Source: Felis catus
Taxonomy: Eukaryota
Assembly: GCF_018350175.1 (NCBI RefSeq)
Contig: NC_058368.1
Location: 105,526,001-105,590,000, forward strand
DNA: 64,000 nucleotides
Reading direction: 5' to 3'
The position numbers were made by a program, and so were the translations under genes. Shown one piece after another: positions 1,737 to 53,319 of the stretch. Every line of letters starts with the position of its first letter. Position 1 is the stretch's first letter. Under the pieces are notes generated by a model, which was given only the letters and a program-made list of their open reading frames with translations, made no database searches and had not been told where the DNA came from.

Positions 1737-3995
1737 GTAAGTAAAAAAAAAAAAAACAATTTTAAAGGTGCTTATTATAACAATTCCATTAGTAAACAAG
1801 ATTAGTATATTTTAGGTTCTATGTAAAAGAATTGATTTTGGTATAGTTACTCCAATTTAGTATTGTCTCCTTTATGTATATTACAGAGTAAAATACCACT
1901 TTTATTTAACCCTTTGGTTTTTCATTATTAGCAACAAAAGGTAATAGAATGTAGAAAAATCAGTGCTACTGAGGAAAGGTGTTTTTGTTCTTTATAATTT
2001 AGGGAGTTTGTAACTGAAATGTTAACTTGTGTTTTCACATGGCTTTTTCATTCTTCACAACCCAAAGTGCCTAAACCTGTGAAAGAAACATTCATTTCTT
2101 GGTGTAATTGCAACTTAAGTTTTTCTACAGTTGTCATTAGAATTTGTGAGAATTTTCCACAGTTTTCACCTCTGTAACCCTTTTCATTCTGCATCTGATT
2201 GATGAAATTGTCATTTGTTATTCCCCAAAGTGTCTCTCTGTACTGCCCCCTCCACCCCAACTCCCCACCTACTGGATCAACCCATCCTGTCTCCACAGGG
2301 TAAAATGGAGCAGGAAACAATTGTTGCGTCAGCGTCATAGAGGCTCACCACTTAGGGTAATAAATAGACTTGTCTTCAGTTCATCAAAATTCCTGGTTTT
2401 GCAGCCCTAGAGGAAGAGACGTAGCTTTTATACTGCAGAATTGTATAGCCCAGAGCTGCTCACACAGATCTGTGAAAAGATAAAGAATGTATTTCTTCCT
2501 TCACGAAGTCTTACTGGGAACAAAAATCAGCTGACCCAAATTGTGCAACCTAGACCCCTAGTTGGTCTACACCCTGGTGTAAACTCACTGATAACATACA
2601 GACCTTAGAACATTTGTGAGTAGCACTGGTTTGGCTTATATCAGACACTGACTTAGTTGGCCTGGGTGGTTTTCTGATAGGAATTGTTCCAAGGATTTTA
2701 CCTGAGCCAGTGATGCTTTTTCATTCTTCACAACCCATTATTTGTGCCTTCTGGTCCTGGGTTGATAGTGTGATAATATGTTTTTATGAGTGGTATTCAT
2801 GCCTGATTCTAAGCTGGGCTTTAAATTCTTTATCTTCTCCATTGGGAGGACAGGTGTCTACTACGCATGCCAGAAGTGAAGTTCAGTAGCATTACTTAGG
2901 TAGTTCCTTTTCTTTATTTTATGCTCTCATAAATTGTGACATTTATTTTAATTACAAGTGATTTTTTACTTAAGTGTTTTTTTTAGGATAAAATTTTTTT
3001 GAGCATTTCTTTTTGCAACTTTATTTCTAAAAGAAGTGTTAAAAATTAGAGTGGATGATTACTTCTAAAAATATTCCTAGTAATTATATATTTTCTCTGT
3101 GTGACTTAGGTTGACTTCAGAATAGCTACAAATAACTGCCACGTTTTTCATTTCCTTGTGTTTCAAATCCTTGGCAACTTTACAAAAGTATTGCATAGCT
3201 ATCTAGTATAGTAATAAATATCGTATAAGTAGCATATCTAGATTTATCTCAGTCTGAAGTACATAAATCTAAATAAATTTTGGAATGTGACTTTTTTTCT
3301 TGGTGACTGATACTGCTTTGCTGTCTTGCCATTCATCTTACTAAGGTAGCGAGCTACCAGATGGCTCTAGCAGAGGACCTGGCGTATGGCACACACTCAG
3401 ATACTGGTGGATGGGTGGATGGTTAAATGACAGTTAGTGGGTTATTTCATTGTCAAGGCCCATCATAATAGATGAAAACAGTAGGACTAGTTAAAGCTTT
3501 AATTATTGTTACAGTGGAAAGGGACTTTACCTAGTTTGCTTTAGCTAAAATTCTGTGGAAGCCTGATGAATAATTCAGCATCGAAGCATAAACAGGTCAG
3601 CACTAGGAAGTAGAGAAAGCTATACAGATAGTATGTAGGTTAGATGTAAGAAAAAAATGGTTCCATGTTAGTATGATGTTTTTCTACCTCCTTTCTTGTT
3701 TCCTTGACTGACCCCAGACATTAAGAAGTTTATCCATGCTTTGATTGACATCTGGACTAGTGATACCAATCAAGGTAGAGGTGCTTGAAACATAATTAGT
3801 AAGGTATATGGACTAGTAGGCGTGACCGAAGTCAAATCATCATTTTGGTTGTAAACTGTTCCCTCATATAAGAAAAGAGGAATGCCAGACTTCACCTAGG
3901 AGGTATTCAAGAATTTACCAGTGACTTGAACTGAAAAAAAAGCGAGGGATTGTGCATATGTATCGCTCAGACTTGACCTAAATGGTGCAATCTGA

Positions 3996-21625: not shown

Positions 21626-23578
21626 CCCCTTTTTAGCAAATAAGCCTTAGCCTGGCAGGATTGGGGAAGGACACAGAAATGTATTCATGATGGTAATGAA
21701 GATGATTTGGTTCTTTCTAGTTGTTTCTTATGCAAATTTGCAACCAGTGCTTCTTACTTCAGTTTCTTTAATACATGGTTCGTGCCACTTCCAGAGGCAC
21801 TCACTGCCTCTAACTTGTAGGCACTGGTGATTTTTAGGTGTCAAATCAGGTAGCTTCACAGCTTTCTCTTAGGCTTTAGGATTTAGCCTCTTCCTAATAT
21901 GGGGCCTATCTTTTGTTGTTTTTTCCCTCTCCTTTCTAGCTTTCAGTATCTCCATACTACTGTGTTTTCTCCTGTTCCTTTTTTTTTTTTCCCTTAAAAA
22001 TCCCTTTATACAATGGACTGTTTTGAGGAAGGAATTAAAACAAAGGTAGATGTTTGCCCTCTGTCATTGTTACTCAGTCTCATCCCTAATATATTTTGTA
22101 TTCTGCTTTTTTGATGCTTTTATGATACAACTATACTGAAGTAAGCCTTTGTGGTATATTTACCATGTAGTGAAGATAGGGGCTACCAGTTCTTGAACTG
22201 CAACTCTAGATTATGTTAGAGTGTAGGTTAAACTACAGTTAAGGAAAGTTGGTAAATAGAGTGGTTACATAAGACAAGCATCCATATTACGTGGTAGTCC
22301 AGAGGCAGATGGATCGTTCATGGCAGGCAGATTTGCTGCACTTGGTCACTCAGGTCCCACATTCTTTGTATCTTGTCAGTCTGCTGTTTCCTAGGAGGTG
22401 TTTTCGTCCATGTGGTCAGAGTCATCAGCACATCCATGGTGTGGCTTACAGGAAAGGGAAACAAAGTATGGAGGGCAGCCAGCTTCCTTATATGGGCTGT
22501 AAGCCACTCACAGGGTCAGTGGTAAGCTACCAGGAAGGACAGGAATTGTGTAATTTCTAGCTGAGGAGCTTTTTAACCTGCTAAAGCTCAGATAGACTGA
22601 ACTATTAGCAATCTGGGCCGTATAGGCTGATTTCTTGTTTGATCACTCCAACGCCTTCTCCCAGACAGAATTGGTTTTTTCAGATAGCTTGCTAAAATTC
22701 TGAATACGTTAGTTATTTTGGTTTGCTTTGGTTTTTGTAGTCTTTATTCAAGTTCTCATGCTTACTTTATGAAGTTAGGAACTACCCTACCAATTTAGTG
22801 ATTATGTCAGAAATTTTAGTCTATTTCCTTTTTCTTAACGTTTGTTTTAATCATATAAATTCTTGTTTTAAAGAATCTTTGCTAATGTTTGAATTTATAA
22901 AATGGATACTTAAATATTTTTACATTAAATAACATTGATTTCCATTTCTTTTCAGTTAAAATAAAGAATTAAGAATATATGAAAGTCATGCCACTATTTT
23001 GTGTTTACAAGGGCAGTTGAATTTAAGTTTGATTTCCACCATAATTTAGAATCAAAACTTTTACTTCAAATAGAAACCTTCAAATCAACCATAGATGATT
23101 TTACTGATAGAACAGCCGTCATTAAAAGTAAGCTAGATTAGATAGGGCTGATATTACGAAGTAGAAATCATTATGATAGGATCAAGCTAAGAAGGAAGAT
23201 GACCTGTTTTGTACATGAAAAGAAGGCCAAGCTCTTAGGAAGTTTTGGAACTCTGAAAAAACTGGGATGTTTATTACCTTTACAAGTAAAAAATTGTTAC
23301 ATATATATATATATATTTTTTAAAGGAGTGATTCATTTTCTTTTTTAGATGATTTTTTTTAATGTGAAATTTATTGTCAAATTGGTTTCCATACAACACC
23401 CAGTGCTCATCCCAAAAGGTGCCCTCCTCAATACCTATTACCCACCCTCCCCTCCTTCCCACCCCCCATCAACCCTCAGTTTGTTCTCATTTTTTAAGAG
23501 TCTCATATGCTTTGGCTCTCTCCCTAACCTGTTTTTTTTTTTTTTCTTCCCCTCCCCCATGGTCTTCTGTTAAGTTTC

Positions 23579-26500
23579 TCAGGATCCACACAGGAGTGAA
23601 AGCATATGGAATCTGTCCTTCTCTGTATGACTTATTTCACTGAGCGTAACACTCTCCAGTTCCATCCACGTTGCTACAAAGGACCATATTTCATTCTTTC
23701 TCATTGCCACTTAGTATTCCATTGTGTATATAAACCACAATTTCTTTATCCATTCGTCAGTTGATAGACATTTAGGCTCTTTCCATAGTTTAGCTGTTGT
23801 TGAGAGTGTTGCTATAAACATTGGGGTACAAGTGCCCCTATGCATCATTACTCCTGTATCCCTTGGGTAAATTCCTAGTAGTGCTACTGCTGGGTCATAG
23901 GGTAAGTCTATTTTTAATTTTTTGAGGAACCTCCACACTGTTTTCCAGAGCGGCTGCACCAGTTTGTATTCCCACCACCAATGCAATAGGGTTCCCGTTT
24001 CTCCACATCCTCGCCAGCATCTGTAGTCTCCTGATTTGTTCATTTTGGCGACCCTGACTGGCGTGAGGTGATAGAATATGAGTGTGGTTTTGATTTGTAT
24101 TTCCCTGATGAGGAGCGACGTTGAGCATCTTTTCATGTGCCTGTTGGCCATCTGGATGTCTTCTTCAGAGAAGTGTCTATTCATGTTTTCTGCCCATTTC
24201 TTCACTGGATTATTTGTCTTTCGGGTGTGGAGTTTGGTGAGCTTTTTGTAGATTTTGGATACTAGCCCTTTGTCCGATATGTCATTTGCGAATATCTTTT
24301 CCCATTCCGTTGGTTGCCTTTTAGTTTTGTTGGTTGTGTCCTTTGCAGTGCAGAAGCTTTTTATCTTCATAAGGTCCCAGTAGTTCATTTTTGCTTTTAA
24401 TTCCCTTGCCTTTGGGGATGTGTCAAGTAAGAAATAGCTGCGGCTAAGGTCAGAAAAGTCTTTTCCTGTTTTCTTCTCTAGGGTTTTGATGGTTTCCCAT
24501 CTCACATTCAGGTCCTTTATCCATTTTGAGTTTGTTTTTGTGAATGGTGTGAGCAAGTGGTCTAGTTTCAACCTTCTGCATGTTGCTGTCCAGTTCTCCC
24601 AGCACCATTTGTTAAAGAGACTCTCTTTTTTCCATTGGATATTCTTTCCTGCTTTGTCAAAGATTAGTTGGCCATACTTTTGTGGGTCTAGTTCTGGGGT
24701 TTCTATTCTATTCCATTGGTCTATGTGTCTGTTTTTAGGCCAATACCATGCTGTCTTGATGATTATTACAGCTTTATAGTAGAGACTAAAGTCTGCGATT
24801 GTGATGCCTCCCTTGGTCTTCTTCTTCAAAATTACTTTGGCTATTCGGGGTCTTTTGTGGTTCCATACAAATTTTAGGATTGCTTCTTCTAGCTTTGAGA
24901 AAAATGCTGGTGCAATTTTGATTGGGATTGCATTGAATGTGTAGATAGCTTTGGGTACTATTGACATTTTGACAATATTTCTTCTTCCAATCCATGAGCA
25001 CGGAATGTTTTTCCATTTCTTTATATCTTCTTCAATTTTCTTCATAAGCTTTCTATAGTTTTCAGCATACAGATCATTGACATCTTTGGTTAGGTTTATT
25101 CCTAGGTATTTTATGCTTCTTGGTACAATTGTGAATGGGATCAGTTTCTTTATTTGTCTTTCTGTTGCTTCATTATTAGTGTATAAGAGTGCAACTGATT
25201 TCTGTATGTTGATTTTTTATCCTGCGACTGCTGAATTCATGTATCAGTTCTAGCAGACTTTTGGTGGAGTCTGTTGGATTTTCCATGTATAATATCATGT
25301 CATCTACAAAAAGTGAAAGCTTAACTTCATCTTTGCCAATTTTGATGCCTTTGATCTCCTTTTGTTGTCTGATTGCTGATGATAGAACTTCCAACACTAT
25401 GTTAAACAACAGCGGTGAGAGTGGACATCCCTGTCGTGTTCTTGATCTCAGGGAGAAAGCTCTCAGTTTTTCCCCATTGAGGATGATATTAGCTGTGGGC
25501 TTTTCATAAATGGCTTTTATGATGTTTAAGTATGTTCCTTCTATCCCAACTTTCTCAAGGGTTTTTATTAAGAAAGAATGCTGAATTTTGTCAAATGCTT
25601 TTTCTGCATCGATTGACAGGATCATATGGTTCTTATCTTTTCTTTTATTAATGTGATGTATCACATTGATTGATTGGTGAATGTTGAACCAGCCCTGCAG
25701 CCCAGGAATGAATCCCACTTGATCATGGTGAATAATTTTTTTTATATGCTGTTGAATTCGATTTGCTAGTATCTTATTGAGAATTTTTGCATCCATATTC
25801 ATCAGGGATATTGGCCTGTAGTTCTCTTTTGTTACTGGGTCTCTGGTTTAGGAATCAAAGTAATGCTGGCTTCATAGAATGAATCTGGAAGTTTTCCTTC
25901 CCTTTCTATTTTTTGGAATAGCTTGAGAAGGATAGGTAGTATCTCTGCTTTAAATGTCTGATAAACTTCCCCAGGGAAGCCATCTGGTCCTGGACTCCTA
26001 TTTGTTGGGAGATTTTTGATAACTGATCCAATTTCTCCACTGGTTATGGGGTCTGTTCAAGCTTTCTATTTCTTCCTGTTTGAGTTTTGGAAGTGTGTGG
26101 GTGTTTAGGAATTTGTCCATTTCTTCCAGGTTGTCCAGTTTGTTGGCATATAATTTTTCATAGTATTCCCTGATAATTGCTTGTATTTCTGAGGGATTGA
26201 TTGTAATAATTCCATTTTCATTCATAATTTTATCTATTTAGGTCCTCTCCCTTTTCTTTTTGAGAAGCCTGGCTAGAGGTTTATCAATTTTATTTATTTT
26301 TTCAAAAAACCAACTCTTGGTTTCATTGATCTGCTCTACAGTTTTTTTTTAGATTCTATATTGTTTATTTCTGCTCTGATCTTTATTATTTCTTTTCTTC
26401 TGCTGGGTTTGGGGTGTCTTTGCTGTTCTGCTTCTATTTCCTTTAGGTGTGTTGTTAGATTTCGTATTTGGGATTTTTCTTGTTTCTGGACATAGGCCTG

Positions 26501-27403
26501 GATTGCAATGTATTTTCCTCTCAGGACTGCCTTTGCTGCATCCCAAAGCATTTGGATTGTTGTATTTTCATTTTCCCTTGTTTCCATATATTTTTAAATT
26601 TCTTCTCTAATTGCCTGGTTGATCCATTCACTCTTTAGTAGGGTGTTCTTTAACCTCCATGCTTTTGGAGGTTTTCCAGACTTTTTCCTGTAATTGATTT
26701 CAAGCTTCATAGCATTGTGGTCTGAAAGTATGCATGGTATGATCTCAACTCTTGTATACTTATGAAGGGCTGTTTTGTGACCCAGTATGTGATCTCTCTT
26801 AGAGAATGTTCCATGTGCACTCGAGAAGAAAGTATATTCTGTTGCTTTGGGATGCAGAGTTCTAAATATATCTGTCAAGTCCATCTGATCCAATGTATCA
26901 ATCAGGGCCCTTGTTTCTTTATTGATCTTATATCTAGATGTTGTATCCATTGCTGTAAGTGGGGCATTAAAGTCCCCTGCAGTGACCATATTCTTATCAA
27001 TAAGGTTGCTTATGTTTGTGATTAATTGTTTTGTATATTTGGGGGCTCCCGTTTTTGGCACATAGACATTTATAATTGTTAGCTCTTCCTGATGAATAGA
27101 CCCTGTAATTATTATATAATGCCCTTCTTCATCTCTTGTTACAGCCTTTAATTTAAAGTCTAGTTTGTCTGATATAAGTATGGCTACTCCAGGTTTCTTT
27201 TGACTTCCAGTAGCATGATAGATAGTTATCCGTCCCCTCACTTTCAATCTGAAGGTGTCCTCAGGTCTAAAATGAGTCTCTTGTAGACAGCAAATAGATA
27301 AGTCTTGTTTTTTTATCCATTCTGGTACCCTATGTCTTTCGGTTGGAGCGTTTAGTCCATTTACATTCAGTGTTTTTATTGAAAGATATGGGTTTAGAGT
27401 CAT
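23579..27403 (-). pseudogene. L1 ORF2p remnant (endonuclease, reverse transcriptase, C-terminal domain; disrupted)
   Basis: EN motifs TLNVNGLN, GDFN, SDH; RT motifs QGCPLSP and LFVDD (consensus FADD); premature stops at 26594 and 23711 and several frameshifts; CCHC motif reads LHWWW instead of LHCWW. Confidence 0.96.
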
Positions 27404-27453
27404 TGTGATGTCTGTAGGTTTCATGCTTGTGGTGATGTCTCTGGTACTTTGTC

Positions 27454-28331
27454 TCACAGGATCCCCCTTAGGATCTCTTGTAGGGCTCGTTTAGTGGTGA
27501 TGACTTCCTTCAGTTTTGTTTGTTTGGGAAGATCTTTCTCTCTCCTTCTATTCCAAATGACAGACTTGCTGGATAAAGGAATGTTGACTGCATATTTTTT
27601 CTGTTCATCACATTGAAGATTTCCTGCCATTCCTTTCTGGCCTGCCAAGTTTCAGTAGATAGATCCGTCACTAGTCTTATCCATCTCCCTTTATATGGTA
27701 GAGCACGATTATCCCTAGCTGCTTTCAGAATATTCTCTTTATCCTTGTATTTTGCCAGTTTCACTATGATATGTCATGCAGAAGATTGATTCAATTTACG
27801 TCTGAAGGGAGTTCTCTGTGCCTCTTGGATTTCAGTGCCTGTTTCCTTCCCCAGATCTGGGAAGTTCTCAGCTATGATTTCTTCAAGTACACCTTCAGCA
27901 CCTTTCTCTCTCTCTCTTCCTCCTCTGGAATCCCAATTATGCGTATATTATTATGTTTTGTCGCATCACTTCTCTAATTCTCCCCTTATACTCCTGGATA
28001 TTTTATCTTTTTCTCAGCTTCCTCTCTTTCCATAATTTTACCTTCTAATTCACCTATTCTCTCCTCTGCCTCTTCAGTCTGAACTGTGGTCACCTCCATT
28101 TTATTTTGCAGCTCATTTATAGCATTTTTTAGCTCCTCCTGTTTCTTAGTCCCTTGATCTAGCAATAGATTCTCTGCTGTCCTCTATACTTTTTTCAAGC
28201 CCAGCGATTAATTTTATGACTCTTATTTTAAGTTCATTTTCTTTTATATTGTTTAAATTGTTTTTGATCAGTTCGTTAGCTGTCGCCACTTCCTGGACTT
28301 TCTTTTGAGGAGAATTCTTCTGTTTCATCAT
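27454..28331 (-). pseudogene. L1 ORF1p remnant (frameshifted)
   Basis: Fragments MMKQKNSPQKK...IAGLEKSIEDSRES, KLAKYKDKENILKAAR...DLSTETWQARKEW and ...ALQEILRGIL* lie in different frames. Confidence 0.93.
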
Positions 28332-29260
28332 TTTGGATAGTCCCTGGAGTGGCGCGGAACTGCAGGGCTCTTCCTCTGTACTGTCTGGAGTAACTTGTGT
28401 TGGTGGGCGGGACTGCAGTCAGACCTGATGTCTGCCCCCAGCCCGCCGCTGGGGCCACAGTCAGACTGGTGTGTACCTTATCTTCCTCTGTCCCAGGGGC
28501 AGAACTCACTCTGGAGTGGTGTGGCCCCTGTCTGGGCTACTTGCACACTGCCAGGCTTGTGGTGCTGCTTCAATGGGATCTGGCGTATTAGTCGGGGTGG
28601 ATCTGCAAGGTGCACGGGGGCGGGAGGGGCAGACTCAGTTGGCTTTGCCTTCGGTGGTGTGCTTCGCGAGGGGCCCTGCAGCACCGGGAGGGAGGCAGAC
28701 CCATCGGAGTGGTGGCTCCACAGAAGCACAGCATTGGGTGTTTGCGCGGTGAAGCAAGTTCTCTGACGGGAACTGTTTCCCTTTGGGATTTTGGCTAGGG
28801 GATGGGCGAGGGAGATGGCGCTTCCCAGCTCCTTTGTTTCCCGCTGAGCTGAGCTCTGTCCTCTGGGGCTCAACAACTCTCCCTCCCGTTGTCCTCTTCT
28901 AGCCCTCTCTCTCTCGGAGCAGAGCTGTTGACTTATAACATTCCAGATGTTAAGTCCTGCTGGCTGTCAGAACTCACTCTGTCTGGCCCCTCCGCTTTTG
29001 CAAGCCAGACTTGGGGACTCTGCTTTGCCTGGCGGGCTGCCCCTCCGCCGCCCGGCTCCCTCCCGCCAGTCCGTGTAGCGCACGCCGCCCTTCCTACCCT
29101 CTTCCATGGGCCTCTTGTCTATGCTTGGCTCCGGAGAATCCGTTCTACTAGTCTTTTGTCGGTTTTCTGCGTTATTTAGGCCAATGTGGGTGGAATCTAA
29201 GTGATCGGCAGGACGTGGTGAGCCCAGCGTCCTCCTACGCCGACATCTTCCTCTGATTCC
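28332..29260 (-). promoter_or_regulatory. L1 5'UTR internal promoter region, GC/CpG-rich
   Basis: Longest GC- and CpG-rich stretch of the window, directly upstream of the ORF1 ATG. Confidence 0.75.
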
Positions 29261-29577: not shown

Positions 29578-29745
<168 letters not shown>

Positions 29746-38292: not shown

Positions 38293-40875
38293 GCTACCAT
38301 TATATTTTTAAGTTTTTTTATTTTAATTCCAATGGTAACATTTAGTGTTACATTAGTTTCAGGTGTATAATATTGTGATACAACAATTCTCTGCAATACT
38401 CAGTGCCCATCATGATAAGTGTACTCTTAATCCCCATCACCTATTTTTTTCCATCCCTCCACCAACTCCCCTCTGTTCTCCATACTTAGGAGTCCATCAC
38501 ACCACCATTCTTTTTTTGTTTTTTGTTTTTTGTTTTTTGGGTTTTTTTTTTTTTTTAAGTAATCTCTACACCCAACATGGGGCTCGAACTCACAACCATA
38601 AGATCAAGAGTCCCAAGCTGAGGCAACCATGTGCCCCACACCACAATCCTTGGTTGAAGAATAATTTCTTCTTATTATAGATGCTGATGAAACAGAACTG
38701 TTCATTCTTTCATATCTTGTTTTTCTTTACATACAATTGTGCTTTTAAAAAAAAAAATGTGTTTGGCAAAGTAGCTCTATGACCAGGTTCAAATCTTATC
38801 TCTCTGAATTTTGATCTGATTATCCTTAACTAAGTAGTTATTTCCCTTACTGGAACTCCTGTTGGAGCCATAAGTACTTACCTGGATCACATATGATAAT
38901 TTTGTGTCCATAGCTACCTTGAAATCTATTTGAGGGAGTAACCAGATGTTATACTTTTTAAAAAATCTCTTCATATTGATTAGGAAAGTATAGAATGAAT
39001 AAGTTTTCCCAAGTAATTATTAAATGCTTTTAGTAAAATTAAAGCTTTTCTGATTTTTGACCTAATATGGTTGCTCTTTAGCTTTGGGGTTTCATCCTAC
39101 GTTTCTAATTCTGTCCTATGCACTTTGCATATGTGAGGACTAGGAAAGGAAGGACAGTGTGAATGTTTAAATCATGTAGGCCATCTGACGTGGACTGGGC
39201 TCTTTTCTGAAGATGCAAGAACAGTGAGATGGAATAATTATCCTAAAATGTAGAAAAAGTGACATTTTTTACAAAGAATTCTTCCACTGTTAGTTGTAGT
39301 TGCTCAAAAGAAAGGAGTCTTTCTGACTTTGACCTTGTAGGAACTTGAAGTGAATGTTTGCTCTGAGAGTCAAGTATTACTCTAAGTATTATACAGCAGG
39401 CAGCAATTAAGAGAAGCAAAATGATGCTTTCTGGTTTCCAGAGCCATAGAAATTGATGTCAGTTTCAAAGCAGTGATACTGCTTATGCTTTTATCTTGTG
39501 ACACTTAAGTTTTGGTTCTGATTATAAATACTTTGAGCACTTGAGGTTTACTTAATTTACTATGCCTAGTAACAGCATGGAGAGACTAAAACTCCAAATC
39601 AAATTATAGCTTAGAGCAATTTCTTTGTTTATAGCAAAAATATTTAGCTACTTAATTCCACGGTAAACTTGGGAAGCTATATTCACTGCCTTTTCTTTAA
39701 GGACCTTGATTTTAAGTCATTTGTGATTTATTAACTTTTTTTCAAATACTTGTAGTTACTCTTCTCTAACATTAGGTCTTTCAGGATACAGCTGAGGAAG
39801 GTTACTGTGTCCATTAATTTTCCGATGAATCTCTTCAGACCTTAGCTAATTCATTATAGGAATGAGGCCAAAATTGTCTCCCCATGATTTAAAACAAAAA
39901 CAAAAACAAAAACAAAAAACATCAATAAATCAATAAAACGTCTCTTACAGTGATAGGTATTCTTCTTTGTGTCTGTGGGAACAAAAATTTGATTTTTTTT
40001 TTTTTTTAGCATTTTAGCCCTTTCTTTTGGTTATATAGAACTAGGTTGTATGTAATTTTTTGAGTATAATGAATATTGGTTGCTTCATAATTAAAAATAA
40101 TAATGAAAGATAAAACTCAAGCCTGTTACACTCCGGGAATGACCCAAAGTTTAGGAATTTGTAATTCTTTCAGTAGATTTGAGAAAAACTTGAATCCACA
40201 TGATTCATGGTCTCAACATAAAGTTTCCAGAATTGAAGTCTGGTTTTAGAGTTGTCTTTGAGGTTTTAATATATTTTGCATGTGTTATAGGATGATCCCA
40301 TTTGTGTTTAAAAAACTTGAAAGGACATATGAATGCGTGTCTACAAATGCATATAAAATCTTTGTATTACCTTTTTAAACATTTTTGTAAAAATGTGAGA
40401 ATTACTTAAAAATACTCTGGTTTCTTTCAGAAGTCATTCCTTTATATTCTACAACCTATTCTCTTTCTCAGTGGAATCACTCTGCTTTGTCTTCTTGTAT
40501 TTCTCATAGCTTTAAGGGTGTAAGCCTAAATTAAGTATGGTGGGAATATTGAATGTTATTTTTCCGTAATTTTAGTTTGTTTCAGATAGGATAGGAGTAC
40601 AGGCATGCTTTAAATGTCTGGTGTAGGTAGAGTGTCAAGACTATAAAGATGTACACTTAACTCGTTTTTAAGAGTATTATAGAAGAAAGGAAAGGGAATG
40701 GTATAGAATTTGAAGCAGACATTATATGGGTCTCACTGTATTTTTAAAAGCATATGTTAGAAATAAGACGTTTAAAGCTGAAGGTGTTTTAGAAATCATC
40801 TCTTACTGCGTTCATTTTATAGAGGAGGACACTAACATTTTTGTGATTTTGATTCTCCCCCCACCCCCATTATAG

Positions 40876-43414: not shown

Positions 43415-43540
43415 AAGAATTATTGTCTTCACAAGAGAAATCTCCCGGTGTCAAGGATGTGGTACTAAGTATGGAGTACAGTAAAAAATCGGATTTAGAT
43501 ACCTCCAAGCCATCCGATGAGAAAAGTGTTACACACAAAG
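43415..43540 (+). CDS. SLC12A2: NKCC1 exon 20, 126 nt
   Basis: ccgtag|AAGAAT...ACAAAG|gtaatt; (E)[41 protein letters not shown]. Confidence 0.95.
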
Positions 43541-46352
43541 GTAATTTTTATTCAGACAAGAAATGTTATTAATGGTAATGTTTACTTTGGGGAGAAATGG
43601 TTTTTATTATATAACATGTCTTATTAAGTAACCCATTCTCTCATTTGTACTGTTCATTTCTAGTAGATGAGGTAAAATGGATGGCTACAACATGATTAGC
43701 TATTTTTAAAATACTAAAGTCGATCGTAGAACAGAAGCCATGCCAGTTAATTATACACTACACTAATACCTGCTTGTATATTTTTATATATGCTTTAAAT
43801 GAAACAATTTAATTTAAAGCCTAGGTTAAATCTGAACTTGGAAAGTAACATGGTAATTTTAGAGTAATGTGATAGAGCATAAGATAACCCTGGAAGAAAT
43901 GAAGTTGACCACAAATCTACATAATTTTTTTGTAAATCCAGATATTGAAATACCAGGGATTTTGTTTATGTGCTGACATATTTAGAATACTTTTTACATC
44001 TACTGCACCTGGAGTTGTTGAGGTAAAACCATGTAATAAAAAATCACATGCAGTTGTATTCCTCACTTAGTCTCTGAAGGAACATGCTATTGGTGTTTGG
44101 TTACTGAACTGTTTGGCCATAATTGCACACCTACTACCCCTGGTGGCCCATGTGGTTCAGGCCACACAAAGGTCTCCAAATCTCCTGAGACGCTGAGATA
44201 ATTTCATCCATAAATCTGTGTCATGTTTACAAGACGGAAAGAGGGATGACTTCCAAATCTTACTCTCCCGCCCTCACTCTCCTACCTCTGTTCAGTCAGT
44301 ATCTCCATCTGTCCTGGTCCCAGCTGGCACGCAACAAGAAAAATCTGCACTGTAAATCATCAAACCATATCATGCTTTTTTGATTCCTATCAAAGAATTA
44401 CCATTCTTTTTCTGAAATTGATCACTTTGGACAAATCCTGTCGCTGTGAAATCGATCTTTCCCAGATTACGTAGAAGCACTGCTGTTACTTGATATTTCT
44501 TTGCTCCTTAGTTACATTGGCTGCTCAGAGTAGTGGTAGTTGAGGCTTTAGTTGAGACCCATTTTCCCTTTAAGTTCTTTGCTGGCTTGATTATAATTTG
44601 TTTCCTGTTTCATCTCAAAACTCTATGAAAGATTTTTAAAACTGCTTTTAATGTTCCTGCATTTACTTTTAGTTTATGGTATACATGCTCTCATTTTCTC
44701 TTTTTATTTTTGTTATCATTTTCTTTTTCCTAAAACCGATCCTTTCTTTACTGAATCTGTTAGGAATTGATAGGTAAAACTATGATGGGAAAGGAAGAAG
44801 TAATAGTCATCAAGCATCTACTCTGTGCCTTTCACATTGCAGTAGGTGTTTTCTACACATTAGCTCATTGGGAAGCTTGGGAAGTCATTATTTTTAGAGT
44901 AGGAACCTGGGGTGAGTACATACCTGCTCACCTTTTTATTTTGAAAATGTCAATAGCTTTATTACCTTCAGATACCTTTAAATATCTTAGTGTAAATTAT
45001 TTTTTAAGTGTCAGGATTTCCTTAACATTTTTTGAGCTCTCTGAAATAAATACACCATGTCCGCATTTATATTTATAATTGTTATTTTTACTATCATCAA
45101 AGACAGTATCAAATATCTATAAGAACAGTAATACATAATCCTATAAAATTAAATGTAATAATTGAAATGTTCCCTAAGAGGCATAAGAAATTAGCATTCA
45201 AAAATAGCATTAATTTTATTTTGTGTTTATTTTCTATGTAGCCAGTTATTTTCAAAATTAACATAGAAACTATAGAAAAGTTTATATAATTTAAAGGTGT
45301 TCAGAATTAGAAACATTCTTGTGTAGTCACCGTATAATTATAGGTGTTCGGTATGTCTTTCTTGGTTACTGTGGCACACAGCATGCAAGAGGACAGAAAG
45401 AGTGCCCTTTGAATACTTACTTTGTGCTAGGCACTGAGCTAAGGTCTTTAATGCTTGCAGCATAATGATCTGAAGAGGTATGTATTGTTCACCCTTTTAC
45501 TAACAAGGAAAGTGAGGAGTTAACTAACCATTTCAAGCTGACGCAGCCAGGAGAAGCGTTAGAGGGAATCCTGGAATCCTGGAATCCTGGGAGCCACTTG
45601 ACTCCAGAGCAGTGTACTCTTCCCTGTCCGGGTCCGGAGTTTTACATGCCTCAGACACCTCACATGAGCTTATCTGAAGAAGAACCTGAGATTAGCAAAA
45701 CTGTTAACCCCAAGAAAATACTTAAAGATACCTGAATACAGATGGACCAGTACATGCATACAAACATATATACATGTATATATATGCTTACGTTTTATAT
45801 ATCAATTGATGTATATATGTGTAAATAGTATTTTATATAAACCAAAAGACTCTGTCTCTGATCAAATTCCTTCCTGTTTCAAGTGGTGATTAGTTTTTAC
45901 CAGGACCGGATATCCATTAAACGTTTCTAAAAGTAACTTTTCAGTCATTTGCCCAGTGATGCAGTGGCAGTGTTTAAAATTCATGTGTTATCTGCAGTGT
46001 CAGTTTTTAACGTCCTACTTCAATTCTATAAGCCATAGTTGAAATTCTTTTCAACTGATTTCAAGTATGAACATTTACAAGCTTAAAAATCGTGTTCCAG
46101 TTTTTGTCAGTTTTACAGGAATACAATGTAGGGGTGAGCGTTCATCAGTAGCCCTGTTGGAGGGGTCTAAAATATGTTTGCTTTTAAAACTCCTCAACAC
46201 TCAGTGTAGAAGATATCTATTTTCAGTCTTGATTATTTTTCACAGACTGTCTCATCATACTATGCTCTGTTTATAAATGTGCTCTATTTACATTTTCATT
46301 ATTAATATAAAGACAATTAACTTATATTTTGTGTTTTTTAAACATAATCTAG

Positions 46353-46400
46353 ATGAGGAAGAGGATGGCAAGACTCCAACTCAACCACTGTTGAAAAAAG
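46353..46400 (+). CDS. SLC12A2: NKCC1 alternative exon 21, 48 nt (included in NKCC1a, skipped in NKCC1b)
   Basis: atctag|ATGAGG...AAAAAG|gcaggc; (D)EEEDGKTPTQPLLKK; symmetric phase 1-1; contains the dileucine motif; non-canonical GC donor. Confidence 0.95.
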
Positions 46401-47397
46401 GCAGGCATTTTTCATCATTTTGTTTTAATCCCCTTTTTTCATACTGTTAACTCTTTAATTCCAACTTTGCTATTTTCTTTTTTTACCTTAGTTTTTATTT
46501 CCATGGCAAGGTGATGCTACAGTTATTTATTGAATGCAGATTAGAAACATTATCTTTAGTCCAACTAAAAAGTATAAGTCATCCCAGGGAAAGGGAGTAT
46601 ATCAAAGGCAAATTATTTTAAATCATCATAGCATTTCTGAAATACTCAAACCTTGACTGTCAATACCAGTTTCTTATTTTAAACTGCATGGTTTAGGTGC
46701 TAAACAGAGACACTGAAATGGGTCTCTTTGCCAGTGTCACTTGCATTCTTTACCATCAGGTGTACCAAGCCAAGCCCTTAATTTTGATACTAATATATTT
46801 TTCATTTCAAAAATTACAATATTTCTCACAGCCCTGCTGCGTTTGGGAGATACACAGTCATGTCCCCGGGCATGACTTTTATGAGAAGGAGATAGAGGTG
46901 AGAGTTACGGAGCAGTGTGGTTTGGCAGCCATATTATGTCATCATGCACAATCATTCATCATGTTTGCGTGTATCATGGCAGCATGAGAAGTGAATGACA
47001 GACATCCTGCAGAAACAATCAGATTTCCTCCTGTGGATTCCTGCTTTTAAAAATTTGCTGTAGGAGTCTCATAATAGTCATTTGCTTGCTCATAGAGTCA
47101 GTGCTGAGTTTTTTGTTTTTTTTTTTTTTTTTAAGTTTTTGAGTTTTTAATTCCTGGGAATATGGGAACTTCCTTGGTATATTGCTCTTTAGATCTGCAG
47201 CACGTGCTGCCCTCCAAGGAGTTCTACCATCTTTCTGTGCCTCAGAGAAAGATGTGTGGTTATATGGCTTTAGCTTTTTGCATCACAAACCAACGGGTCA
47301 AGTTAGGTAAAGATGAGGGTGTTCTTGCTTAGACTCAGAGGTTTCACTGTGATAATTGTTAGATTGTATTCATTCGTCTTCCACTTCCCTCTGTCTT

Positions 47398-47481
47398 TTA
47401 TATTAATGATGACATTTTATGTAAAATAATTTTTTGATCTTATATTAATGATGACATTTTATGTAAAATAATTTTTTGATC
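47398..47481. repeat. Perfect 42-bp tandem duplication (2 copies)
   Basis: ttatattaatgatgacattttatgtaaaataattttttgatc repeated at 47398-47439 and 47440-47481. Confidence 0.97.
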
Positions 47482-47754
47482 TTTAAATTACTGAGGAAAA
47501 AGATTACAAAAGTGATACGTTCATGGAATAGGCATAAGCCTCATTTGTCCAGTTAGCGTAAAACAACTTCTCAAAAATTAAAATCTAGCAGTCAATTATA
47601 ATATTCTTGATTGGTATTGGTATTCATGCTTCTCTTTCATTAAGAATGCTTCAAAATATTAGAAATTAGGCAAGATAATTTGGATGAGTTAAGCTGTTGT
47701 AAAGATGTATTTGTGAACGTCTTTCAAAAGTACATTTAAATTATAAACCACTGA

Positions 47755-48084
<330 letters not shown>

Positions 48085-49397
48085 TAGTACTAAGAAATGA
48101 CGTGTCCTTTTCATCCCTAGACCCCTTTCCAGTTTTGTCAACATTCCTCAAAGCACCAGGATTAGTTTCAGAATCAGGTGTTGCACTTAACTGTTACCTC
48201 TTCAGTGCCCTTCACTTTGCAAGTTGCCTACTTCTTGAGCTCATGACCTTAATATTTTTTGGTTTTTGTTGTGTTTTTTTTTTAATCGACCAGTCTGAGA
48301 ATTTCACTAGATTTGAAGTACCATTTAATCTTTTGTCATAATTAGTTTACATTATGTAGGTTTTTGGTAGAACCATTACAGAAGTGACGCTATGCTCTTC
48401 TGTCTATATCTCAAGTGGGACATGATGTTTGTTTTGGCTCATGACTGGTGAAGTTAGCTTTGACCATTGAGTAAGGTGGTTTTCACTAGATTTTTAGAAT
48501 GAAAAGTTACCGTTTCCCCTTTTTAATTACACATATTAGTGGATGGGGATTTACTTTTGGATTAGGTAAATATACCATCATTTCTACAACTTTTACCACC
48601 ATCTTTAGCGTCCTTTGATACTTTGGCCTGCTCTTATCATTGGTGTGGTGTGTTTGTGGTTACCAAATGGTGATTTTCGAATCCTGTTATTTCTTCCTCT
48701 TAGTTGGCTTCTTACTGTAAGGAAGAGCTTTCTCTTTTTTTCTATCTTTGTGAACTCATAGACTGTATTCAGTGTGAGATGATTTGTCATTCTCATTATT
48801 TGTTTTGATGTTCAGATCGTTTCCATATTTGGCCAGCAAGATCCTCTGTAGTCTGACTTGTGTGTCCATTTGTTATTTCCCAATCATAAGATGTTCCAGA
48901 CTTACTTTTGTACTTTGCCTGTACCAGCCATTGAGTCACCTTTTACCCGAGGAACGCTGACTGCTCTTAGTGGAGAATGGTATATAGAAACAAAGATACT
49001 CTTGTTGCCACTGCAGTGTCACTGCTCCCAGGCCCTCTCAGTAGACGGGTCTCAGAAACTTACCATAGATATGTTAGTACATGTAAGTATAGATTGAACA
49101 CCCATTCCAGTTTAAATACTGCAGGGTTTAATCCAGCTTCTTCCTTCTTGGAGTTCTCATTTGAGAGAGAAACCTGGCTCCCACTAGGTTCAGTGAAGAC
49201 ACTCAGTTCCTCAGTCCTCCTGTATGTGACTAACCTCCCAGTTCCATTGGGCTTCCCTCCTTGTTCAGGCCTACCTCATGGCTTTCTGTCTGAATTATTA
49301 AGGAAGAACAGATAGAAAAATATTGTTTAATGCAGAGTTGTAGCAGACATTCTTTTAGAGATTAAATTGAATTAAAAGGTCTTAATTGAGAAATTAG

Positions 49398-53056: not shown

Positions 53057-53319
53057 TAAAATACGTTAAAATCGAAGTGTCAAGAACTATAATTTGTTAC
53101 GGGAGGAACCAGTCTTGTAAATTCAGTCTCCTCTAAGTTGGATCTGTATGTGAACAGTGTGTGTAAATCATTAGGTCTTTTTTAAACTAGGGAACAGAGA
53201 CTTTTATTACACCATAATTATTTTGGTTTCTTTTTGCTTACTTCTGTACAGTTCTATGAACCACACTAGATTCCACTTTTCCAATGGTCTAGGAATGACT
53301 TTGTCTTATTTCCTTTCAG

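Follow-up and report, generated by a model that had tools for sequence, protein, structure and literature searches.

Within intron 21 of SLC12A2 (NKCC1), a 66-nt segment at positions 46832–46897 carries the signals and the conservation pattern of a poison exon, and from this evidence we are inclined to regard it as a selected, conserved poison cassette exon between exons 21 and 22. Positions refer to the window, the whole 64-kb stretch of cat DNA that was analysed, and the exons, splice signals and motifs described in and around the segment lie on its plus strand. On inspection of the sequence, a branch point, an AG acceptor and a GT donor stand in this order within intron 21. The branch-point motif TACTAAT, which also contains ACTAAY, occupies 46788–46794 with the branch A inferred at 46793. 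An AG-free zone with a weak pyrimidine tract and the acceptor CAG extends over 46775–46831 (AG at 46830–46831), the exon ends at 46897, and the donor GAG|GTGAGAGT (core GAG|GTGAGA) continues through 46898–46905. The first in-frame TGA lies at 46873–46875 and the second at 46882–46884. In addition, the exon end (46883–46897) consists of purines at 14 of 15 positions and may be enhancer-like.

Every signal that a sequence-only reading had placed here was present: TACTAAT, the AG-free stretch 46775–46829, tttctcacag|46832, 46897|GTGAGA, the length of 66 nt and the TGA. The same reading had described the segment as richer in GC and purines than the surrounding intron, which counting bore out: GC made up 34/66 positions of the segment vs. 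473/1433 elsewhere in intron 21, and purines made up 36/66 vs. 664/1433. A GC level as high or higher was found in 338 of 4879 66-nt windows of the gene. Its further remark that the segment is not a recognisable repeat held within the window, to which the comparison was confined: 46780–46900 matched nothing in the rest of it, and no second copy of the segment was found there. An Rfam scan of 46200–48100 returned four weak matches, none of which reached the gathering score or overlapped the segment. Among 24 listed sequencing runs, 20 contained at least half of the words of 46340–47000, with 1 of these recorded as RNA; these counts speak neither for nor against splicing of the segment.

The host gene was identified from its exons. 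SLC12A2 exons 7–27 were mapped in the window, and the 21 spliced exons gave a coding sequence that corresponds to residues 426–1204 of the Lynx NKCC1 protein P0006 with no mismatches. Exon numbers were assigned from the human and mouse exon sizes, with 126, 48 and 123 nt marking exons 20–22. Exon 20 (43415–43540, 126 nt) and exon 21 (46353–46400, 48 nt) both end in phase 1, and exon 20 would be the upstream partner of the segment if exon 21 were skipped; exon 22 lies at 47900–48022. Exon 21 ends in a GC donor (AAG|GCAGGC, GC at 46401–46402), the only non-GT donor among the 20 in the window, which may favour skipping of this exon. Exon 21 is the NKCC1a/b cassette, as identified in PMC7159186. 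The gene spans 54 kb of the window, of which 50,271 intron bases were scanned. Several other features were noted along the way, including a perfect 2 × 42-nt tandem duplication in intron 21 (47398–47483), a repeat of 3.2 × 8 nt in intron 20 (45565–45590), and a long antisense stretch in intron 15 (about 23300–29200) whose translations resemble what we take to be broken LINE-1. Many copies of what is presumably a carnivore SINE are spread across the window. Moreover, in the protein P0026 the frame changes where exon 21 ends, and translation terminates early within exon 22, in the frame that a 64-nt form of the candidate exon would enter.

The strength of the splice signals was evaluated with acceptor and donor matrices built from the exons of SLC12A2 itself. 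The acceptor scored 0.65, a value equalled or exceeded by 925 of 3103 intronic AGs, and its pyrimidine share (0.5) was lower than in all 21 real acceptors. The donor, which had been called strong, proved middling (6.7; equalled or exceeded by 52 of 3116 intronic GTs). In the introns of the gene, 204 acceptor–donor sets equalled or beat the candidate, compared with 215 in 30 shuffles. When a long AG-free zone and a CTRAY branch point were also included, 3 sets were observed vs. 3.7 expected, and at the candidate's own tier 1 was observed vs. 0.67 in the shuffles; an exact TACTAAY was rare (1 vs. 0.03), but this tier was chosen after the fact. The candidate's splice signals as a set are thus near chance level, and on signal scores alone the segment would have been called a pseudoexon. 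A stop in the phase-1 frame is likewise expected by chance in 71% of random intronic 66-mers (2133/2998). Splice-site strength and the in-frame stop were accordingly both dropped as evidence, the former for an exon and the latter for a poison exon. Four other intronic acceptor–donor sets with a long AG-free zone and CTRAY were recorded at 3346–3595, 21940–22140, 39082–39175 and 48891–49082.

Conservation was read from spurious reading frames called over intron 21 in public contigs. The database ORFs P0081–P0117 over this intron translate TGA as tryptophan; they are artefacts, but conservation can still be read from them. This translation of TGA is evident in P0111, which matches the window's own frame at 98% identity and shows W where the window has its TGAs. 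Three similarity searches yielded 20 distinct clusters, of which 15 cover the segment, 3 (P0114–P0116) begin 3′ of the donor and were excluded from the exon counts, and 2 are unrelated. The profile matches P0096 and P0098 were unrelated repetitive proteins and were left out. The test interval, 46788–46903, had been fixed by the sequence-only reading before any comparison. A frameshift-aware alignment was made of 17 sequences, of which 2 start after the interval, leaving 15 for comparison.

Translated identity was higher in the interval than in the flanks in all 15 covering sequences, with p < 0.05 in 11; the excess was not significant for P0111, P0083, P0093 and P0117. For example, core and flank identities were 31/38 vs. 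61/125 in P0107, 31/38 vs. 64/123 in P0092 and 35/39 vs. 53/72 in P0086. Between exon 21 and the branch point (46534–46787), P0107 kept only 36 of 81 residues. In the most distant group, the flanks showed 44–64% translated identity with many indels, whereas the core retained 79–82%. Simulation translated these differences into about 6–10% nucleotide change in the core vs. 17–28% in the flanks. For the most distant group, whose segment is 64 nt long, simulated flank change was about 20–30%, and this level of divergence suggests that the group belongs to another mammalian order.

The individual splice signals were also preserved. Residues compatible with the branch point occurred in 13 of the 13 clusters that reach it, and residues compatible with the acceptor and donor in all 15 clusters. 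Furthermore, most bases could be fixed by intersecting two reading frames of close relatives. In these two-frame solutions, TACTAAT was fixed in 3/3 that cover the branch point, while the CAG acceptor, the GAG|GTGAGA donor and both TGAs were fixed in 7/7. Fixed positions matched the window at 151 of 163 sites in one 66-nt lineage and at 133 of 149 in the most distant 64-nt group, and the changes among relatives fell in the exon body and not in the splice signals. The paired frames come from different records with 1–8 conflicting codons per pair, the four 64-nt pairs share members, and the lineages are interrelated and not independent. Since resemblance to this region was the basis on which the relatives were retrieved, lineages that lost the element cannot appear among them. 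Judged from these translated records, the segment with its splice signals is conserved above the neighbouring intron in related genomes. Of the features whose mammalian conservation the sequence-only reading had proposed to check, AG, GT and branch point are kept in the relatives, and the TGAs are in frame only in the 66-nt forms.

The reading frame, unlike the sequence and its signals, is not kept. The segment measures 66 nt in nine clusters and 64 nt in six, where 2 nt are missing near 46853, and a length that varies in this way argues that the segment is not protein-coding. Conserved sequence and signals combined with a free frame are the usual look of a non-coding, poison-type exon. Because exons 20 and 21 both end in phase 1, the 66-nt segment stops at 46873 after either; the predicted 14 residues followed by TGA at 46873–46875 were reproduced in both cases. 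In the four 64-nt solutions, no stop occurs within the exon when it is read in phase 1, and exon 22 is entered out of frame; on the exon 22 of the window, as opposed to that of the relatives, this frame runs into a TGA at 47934. Inclusion should therefore end translation early in both the 66-nt and the 64-nt forms. The six downstream junctions that had been claimed are present, the nearest 22 nt from the stop and the next (exon 22/23) 145 nt from it. A stop more than 50–55 nt before a downstream exon junction marks a transcript for nonsense-mediated decay (NMD), and the 22/23 junction, 145 nt away, and the junctions after it lie beyond this distance.

Frame 0 of the 66 nt is open, whereas the phase-1 frame has the two TGAs. 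This open frame appears in a GenBank felid model, P0007 (GAB5566662.1, Prionailurus iriomotensis), which uses exactly the candidate segment between exons 20 and 22 and carries its frame-0 translation in place of exon 21. P0007 was the only one of 45 proteins with the segment as an exon, and the peptide occurred in 1 of 80 proteins of a wider set. The model needs 3 extra bases, which canonical micro-exons of 2 nt and 1 nt (8 and 1 sites, respectively) could supply. It also cuts a spurious GT–AG intron out of exon 16 (window 29589–29681) and is named as SLC12A1 despite matching SLC12A2. As proof of a coding exon, P0007 was ruled out by the phase-1 TGAs, the 3 missing bases, the 64-nt forms and the error in exon 16; it shows only that a gene finder saw an exon-like signal at the segment.

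The flanks of the segment contain motifs of known splicing regulators. NOVA binding downstream of an exon promotes inclusion of that exon. A NOVA-type YCAY cluster, with 7 YCAY in 50 nt, was found at 46929–46977, which is +32 to +80 from the donor. It was first spotted on visual inspection, and four motifs including YCAY were tabulated in all. No other cluster in the 54-kb gene span reaches 7 YCAY in 50 nt; a cluster of this density appeared at any position in 3 of 100 gene shuffles, and in 0 of 2000 local shuffles at +10 to +150, and 0.18% of gene positions have one at +10 to +150. The real donors of the gene (n = 20) have at most 3 YCAY. In the relatives, 4–6 YCAY were fixed 3′ of the donor in six two-frame solutions spanning most of the cluster, and 3 in one solution that ends at 46948. 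Three other intronic clusters, at 23661, 38459 and 51886, have 6 YCAY in 50 nt. Upstream, TGCATG, which we take to be an RBFOX-type motif, lies at 46685–46690, 147 nt before the acceptor; it is the only copy in 45900–47900, and matching residues were present in 6/6 related clusters that reach across it. The branch-point ACTAAY, presumably a motif of the QKI/SF1 type, is also the only copy in 45900–47900. RBFOX and QKI at such upstream motifs act repressively. Binding of NOVA to YCAY clusters is documented in PMC3552424, and a literature search for NOVA binding to the candidate exon, or for an effect of NOVA loss on it, found no paper.

RNA folding predicted a hairpin at 46820–46852 that would pair the acceptor with the exon start, with z = −3.5 for a stretch chosen after a wider-region fold; the wider region itself was not significant (z = −1.25). 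No compensatory change supporting this hairpin was seen. A second hairpin of 9 pairs (46856–46877) lies over the first TGA and is only partly kept in the relatives.

Taken together, conservation above the flanks, a frame that is not conserved and a conserved YCAY cluster lend support to the poison-exon reading, to which the splice signals alone, being no better than chance, add nothing. The sequence comparisons point to a genuine, conserved element that is probably functional, with what would be a NOVA-type enhancer beside it. In the mechanism that we propose, the weak acceptor, possibly hidden in the hairpin, would leave the candidate exon skipped by default. NOVA on the downstream YCAY cluster would raise its inclusion in neurons, joining exon 20 or exon 21 through the candidate exon to exon 22, and RBFOX or QKI, bound upstream, may counteract inclusion. 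In transcripts with the exon, translation would end 145 nt short of the exon 22/23 junction; NMD would remove these transcripts, and this decay would trim NKCC1 output after transcription. The full NOVA-driven neuronal version would merit about half the confidence that we place in the poison exon as such. More doubtful again is the widest form of the proposal, in which a mammal-wide, NOVA-enhanced poison exon would throttle neuronal NKCC1, its use linked to the skipping of exon 21 and counteracted by RBFOX or QKI.

Other explanations of the same segment were considered. It might serve exon 21 as a conserved intronic splicing regulator or decoy exon that is itself rarely ligated, with NOVA, RBFOX, QKI or the spliceosome engaged at its sites and motifs and setting exon 21 skipping or intron retention. 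We consider this unlikely, although the weak GC donor of exon 21, the mainly neuronal skipping of that exon (44 of 58 reads; PMC10183754), the weak and perhaps hairpin-hidden acceptor of the candidate and the lack of any listed inclusion of the candidate exon in the catalogues searched would all fit it. It accounts less well for a branch point, acceptor, body and donor that are conserved as one unit 390–580 nt from exon 21, separated from it by the poorly kept stretch noted above for P0107, and for a YCAY cluster that adjoins the candidate's donor and not that of exon 21. Still less probable, in our view, is a pseudoexon, that is, chance splice-like signals in a stretch conserved for an unrelated reason, such as a DNA enhancer or local slow mutation, or through search bias. 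The abundance of equal or better acceptor–donor sets in the gene, the high chance of a stop, searches that select for similarity to this region and the 4 of 15 comparisons without a significant excess are what such a pseudoexon would predict. It would not predict intact splice signals in every cluster long enough to include them, changes that sit in the exon body, or the top YCAY cluster of the gene at +32 to +80, when so few gene positions have one at a comparable distance.

Two further possibilities appear far more remote. The donor, which is better than the acceptor, might belong to an alternative first exon or to the 5′ extension of a short transcript starting in intron 21, and short and variant human NKCC1 transcripts are on record (PMC6491514); such an exon would use the donor only, but the branch point and acceptor are conserved too, and the frame leading into exon 22 has no ATG downstream of its last stop. 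At least as improbable is the arrangement modelled in P0007, a coding exon used instead of exon 21 and adding about 22 residues. The open frame 0 and the presence of its translation between exons 20 and 22 in that model speak for it, but the neighbouring exons are in phase 1, where the segment has two stops, the model depends on 3 extra bases and contains the spurious exon 16 intron, six clusters have the 64-nt form, and the peptide occurs in only 1 of the 80 proteins compared.

Prior reports were then compared with the candidate poison exon. A literature search, with most subscription papers outside its reach, found no description of a poison exon in SLC12A2 intron 21. Intron 21 corresponds to chr5:128177152–128178566 in human (hg38) and to chr18:57934998–57936307 in mouse (mm10). 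In the mouse and human brain skipped-exon tables available from PMC13078869, only exon 21, classed as non-NMD, was among the matches listed for SLC12A2. No SLC12A2 entry was found in the searched supplements of PMC11188260, PMC8091538, PMC7347940 and PMC11632617, whose large tables may lie outside the files searched. The supplement of PMC10123112 lists a single annotated unproductive event of human SLC12A2, at exon 26. In the experiments described in the available text of three papers, all apparently carried out without an NMD block, a human exon 21–22 minigene in HEK293T cells gave three products, none with an extra exon (PMC7159186), only the expected product came from a mouse minigene that included 616 nt of intron 21 (PMC12038040), and RT-PCR of mouse brain gave bands of 190 and 142 bp and an S1-sensitive heteroduplex (PMC10183754). 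A band of about 220 bp in the latter, near the size expected for exon 21 skipping plus 64–66 nt, was rejected as a trace of the candidate exon because the authors show it to be the S1-sensitive heteroduplex. The 2-fold rise of SLC12A2 (log2 1.05) in cycloheximide-treated human induced neurons (PMC13078869) is not NMD-specific and was not used. Metagenome contigs were also rejected as mammalian copies of intron 21, as the best of 57 loci had 78% identity to exon 22, far from the near-identity of the mammalian proteins.

One human record may be relevant. A cortex NKCC1 transcript termed ‘1-27 (21a)’ is reported in PMC6491514, citing Morita et al. 2014. To judge by the name, this full-length transcript from cortex may carry an additional or modified piece at exon 21, as the candidate would. 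The candidate has possibly been glimpsed already in human under this name; that the ‘21a’ piece is the candidate exon itself is conceivable, though we would sooner doubt it than assume it.

Among known systems, the closest are the NOVA-dependent cryptic NMD exons of Scn9a (E17a), Stx2 and Cdk5rap2 (PMC3552424). They share with the candidate an unannotated, conserved intronic exon with a premature stop beside a YCAY cluster, in an ion-transport gene. For these exons, NOVA-mediated inclusion lowers mRNA and protein, and binding, inclusion and decay were measured, whereas the candidate is a prediction from sequence; the NOVA cluster of Scn9a lies upstream of its exon and that of the candidate downstream. 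In the main text of that paper, Slc12a2 and NKCC1 do not occur. The short, unannotated cassette exons of PMC11632617 are also located in conserved intronic elements and act as poison on inclusion; they differ from the candidate in having read support from human tissue. The supplement file of that paper in which SLC12A2 was sought may not contain the full list of 394 exons. Within SLC12A2 itself, exon 21 (NKCC1a/NKCC1b) shares with the candidate the intron region and phase-1 neighbours, and its splicing is neuron-biased; it is 48 nt long, frame-preserving and non-NMD, whereas the candidate stops or shifts the frame. The poison 3′ splice site of human exon 26 (PMC10123112) is a further case of unproductive splicing in this gene, but it differs in place and type, being an acceptor 66 nt upstream of exon 26. 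At the corresponding offset in the window (53252–53253) the dinucleotide is TT and not AG.

NKCC1 determines the chloride level of neurons, and drugs against seizures and neurodevelopmental disorders are directed at it. The sequence-only reading had connected the segment with a fall of NKCC1 in maturing neurons and the GABA switch. This link was not supported, as PMC7761970 and PMC10183754, in the parts available, credit the switch to KCC2 up-regulation and call developmental down-regulation of NKCC1 contested. Neuronal NKCC1 levels during development are disputed (PMC7761970), and adult neurons contain NKCC1 mRNA but little protein (PMC10183754). Moreover, variants of exon 21 cause deafness (PMC7159186 and PMC12038040). 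A conserved poison exon beside exon 21 would provide a defined post-transcriptional control point, and it could be searched for disease variants lying deep in the intron and targeted with splice-switching oligonucleotides. Since poison exons are well known as a class, the gain would be gene-specific and would depend on the element existing in human or mouse. If the proposal is true, a mammal-wide neuronal poison exon would help to explain why adult neurons have NKCC1 mRNA with little protein, and splice switching at it would offer a means of lowering or raising NKCC1 specifically in neurons.
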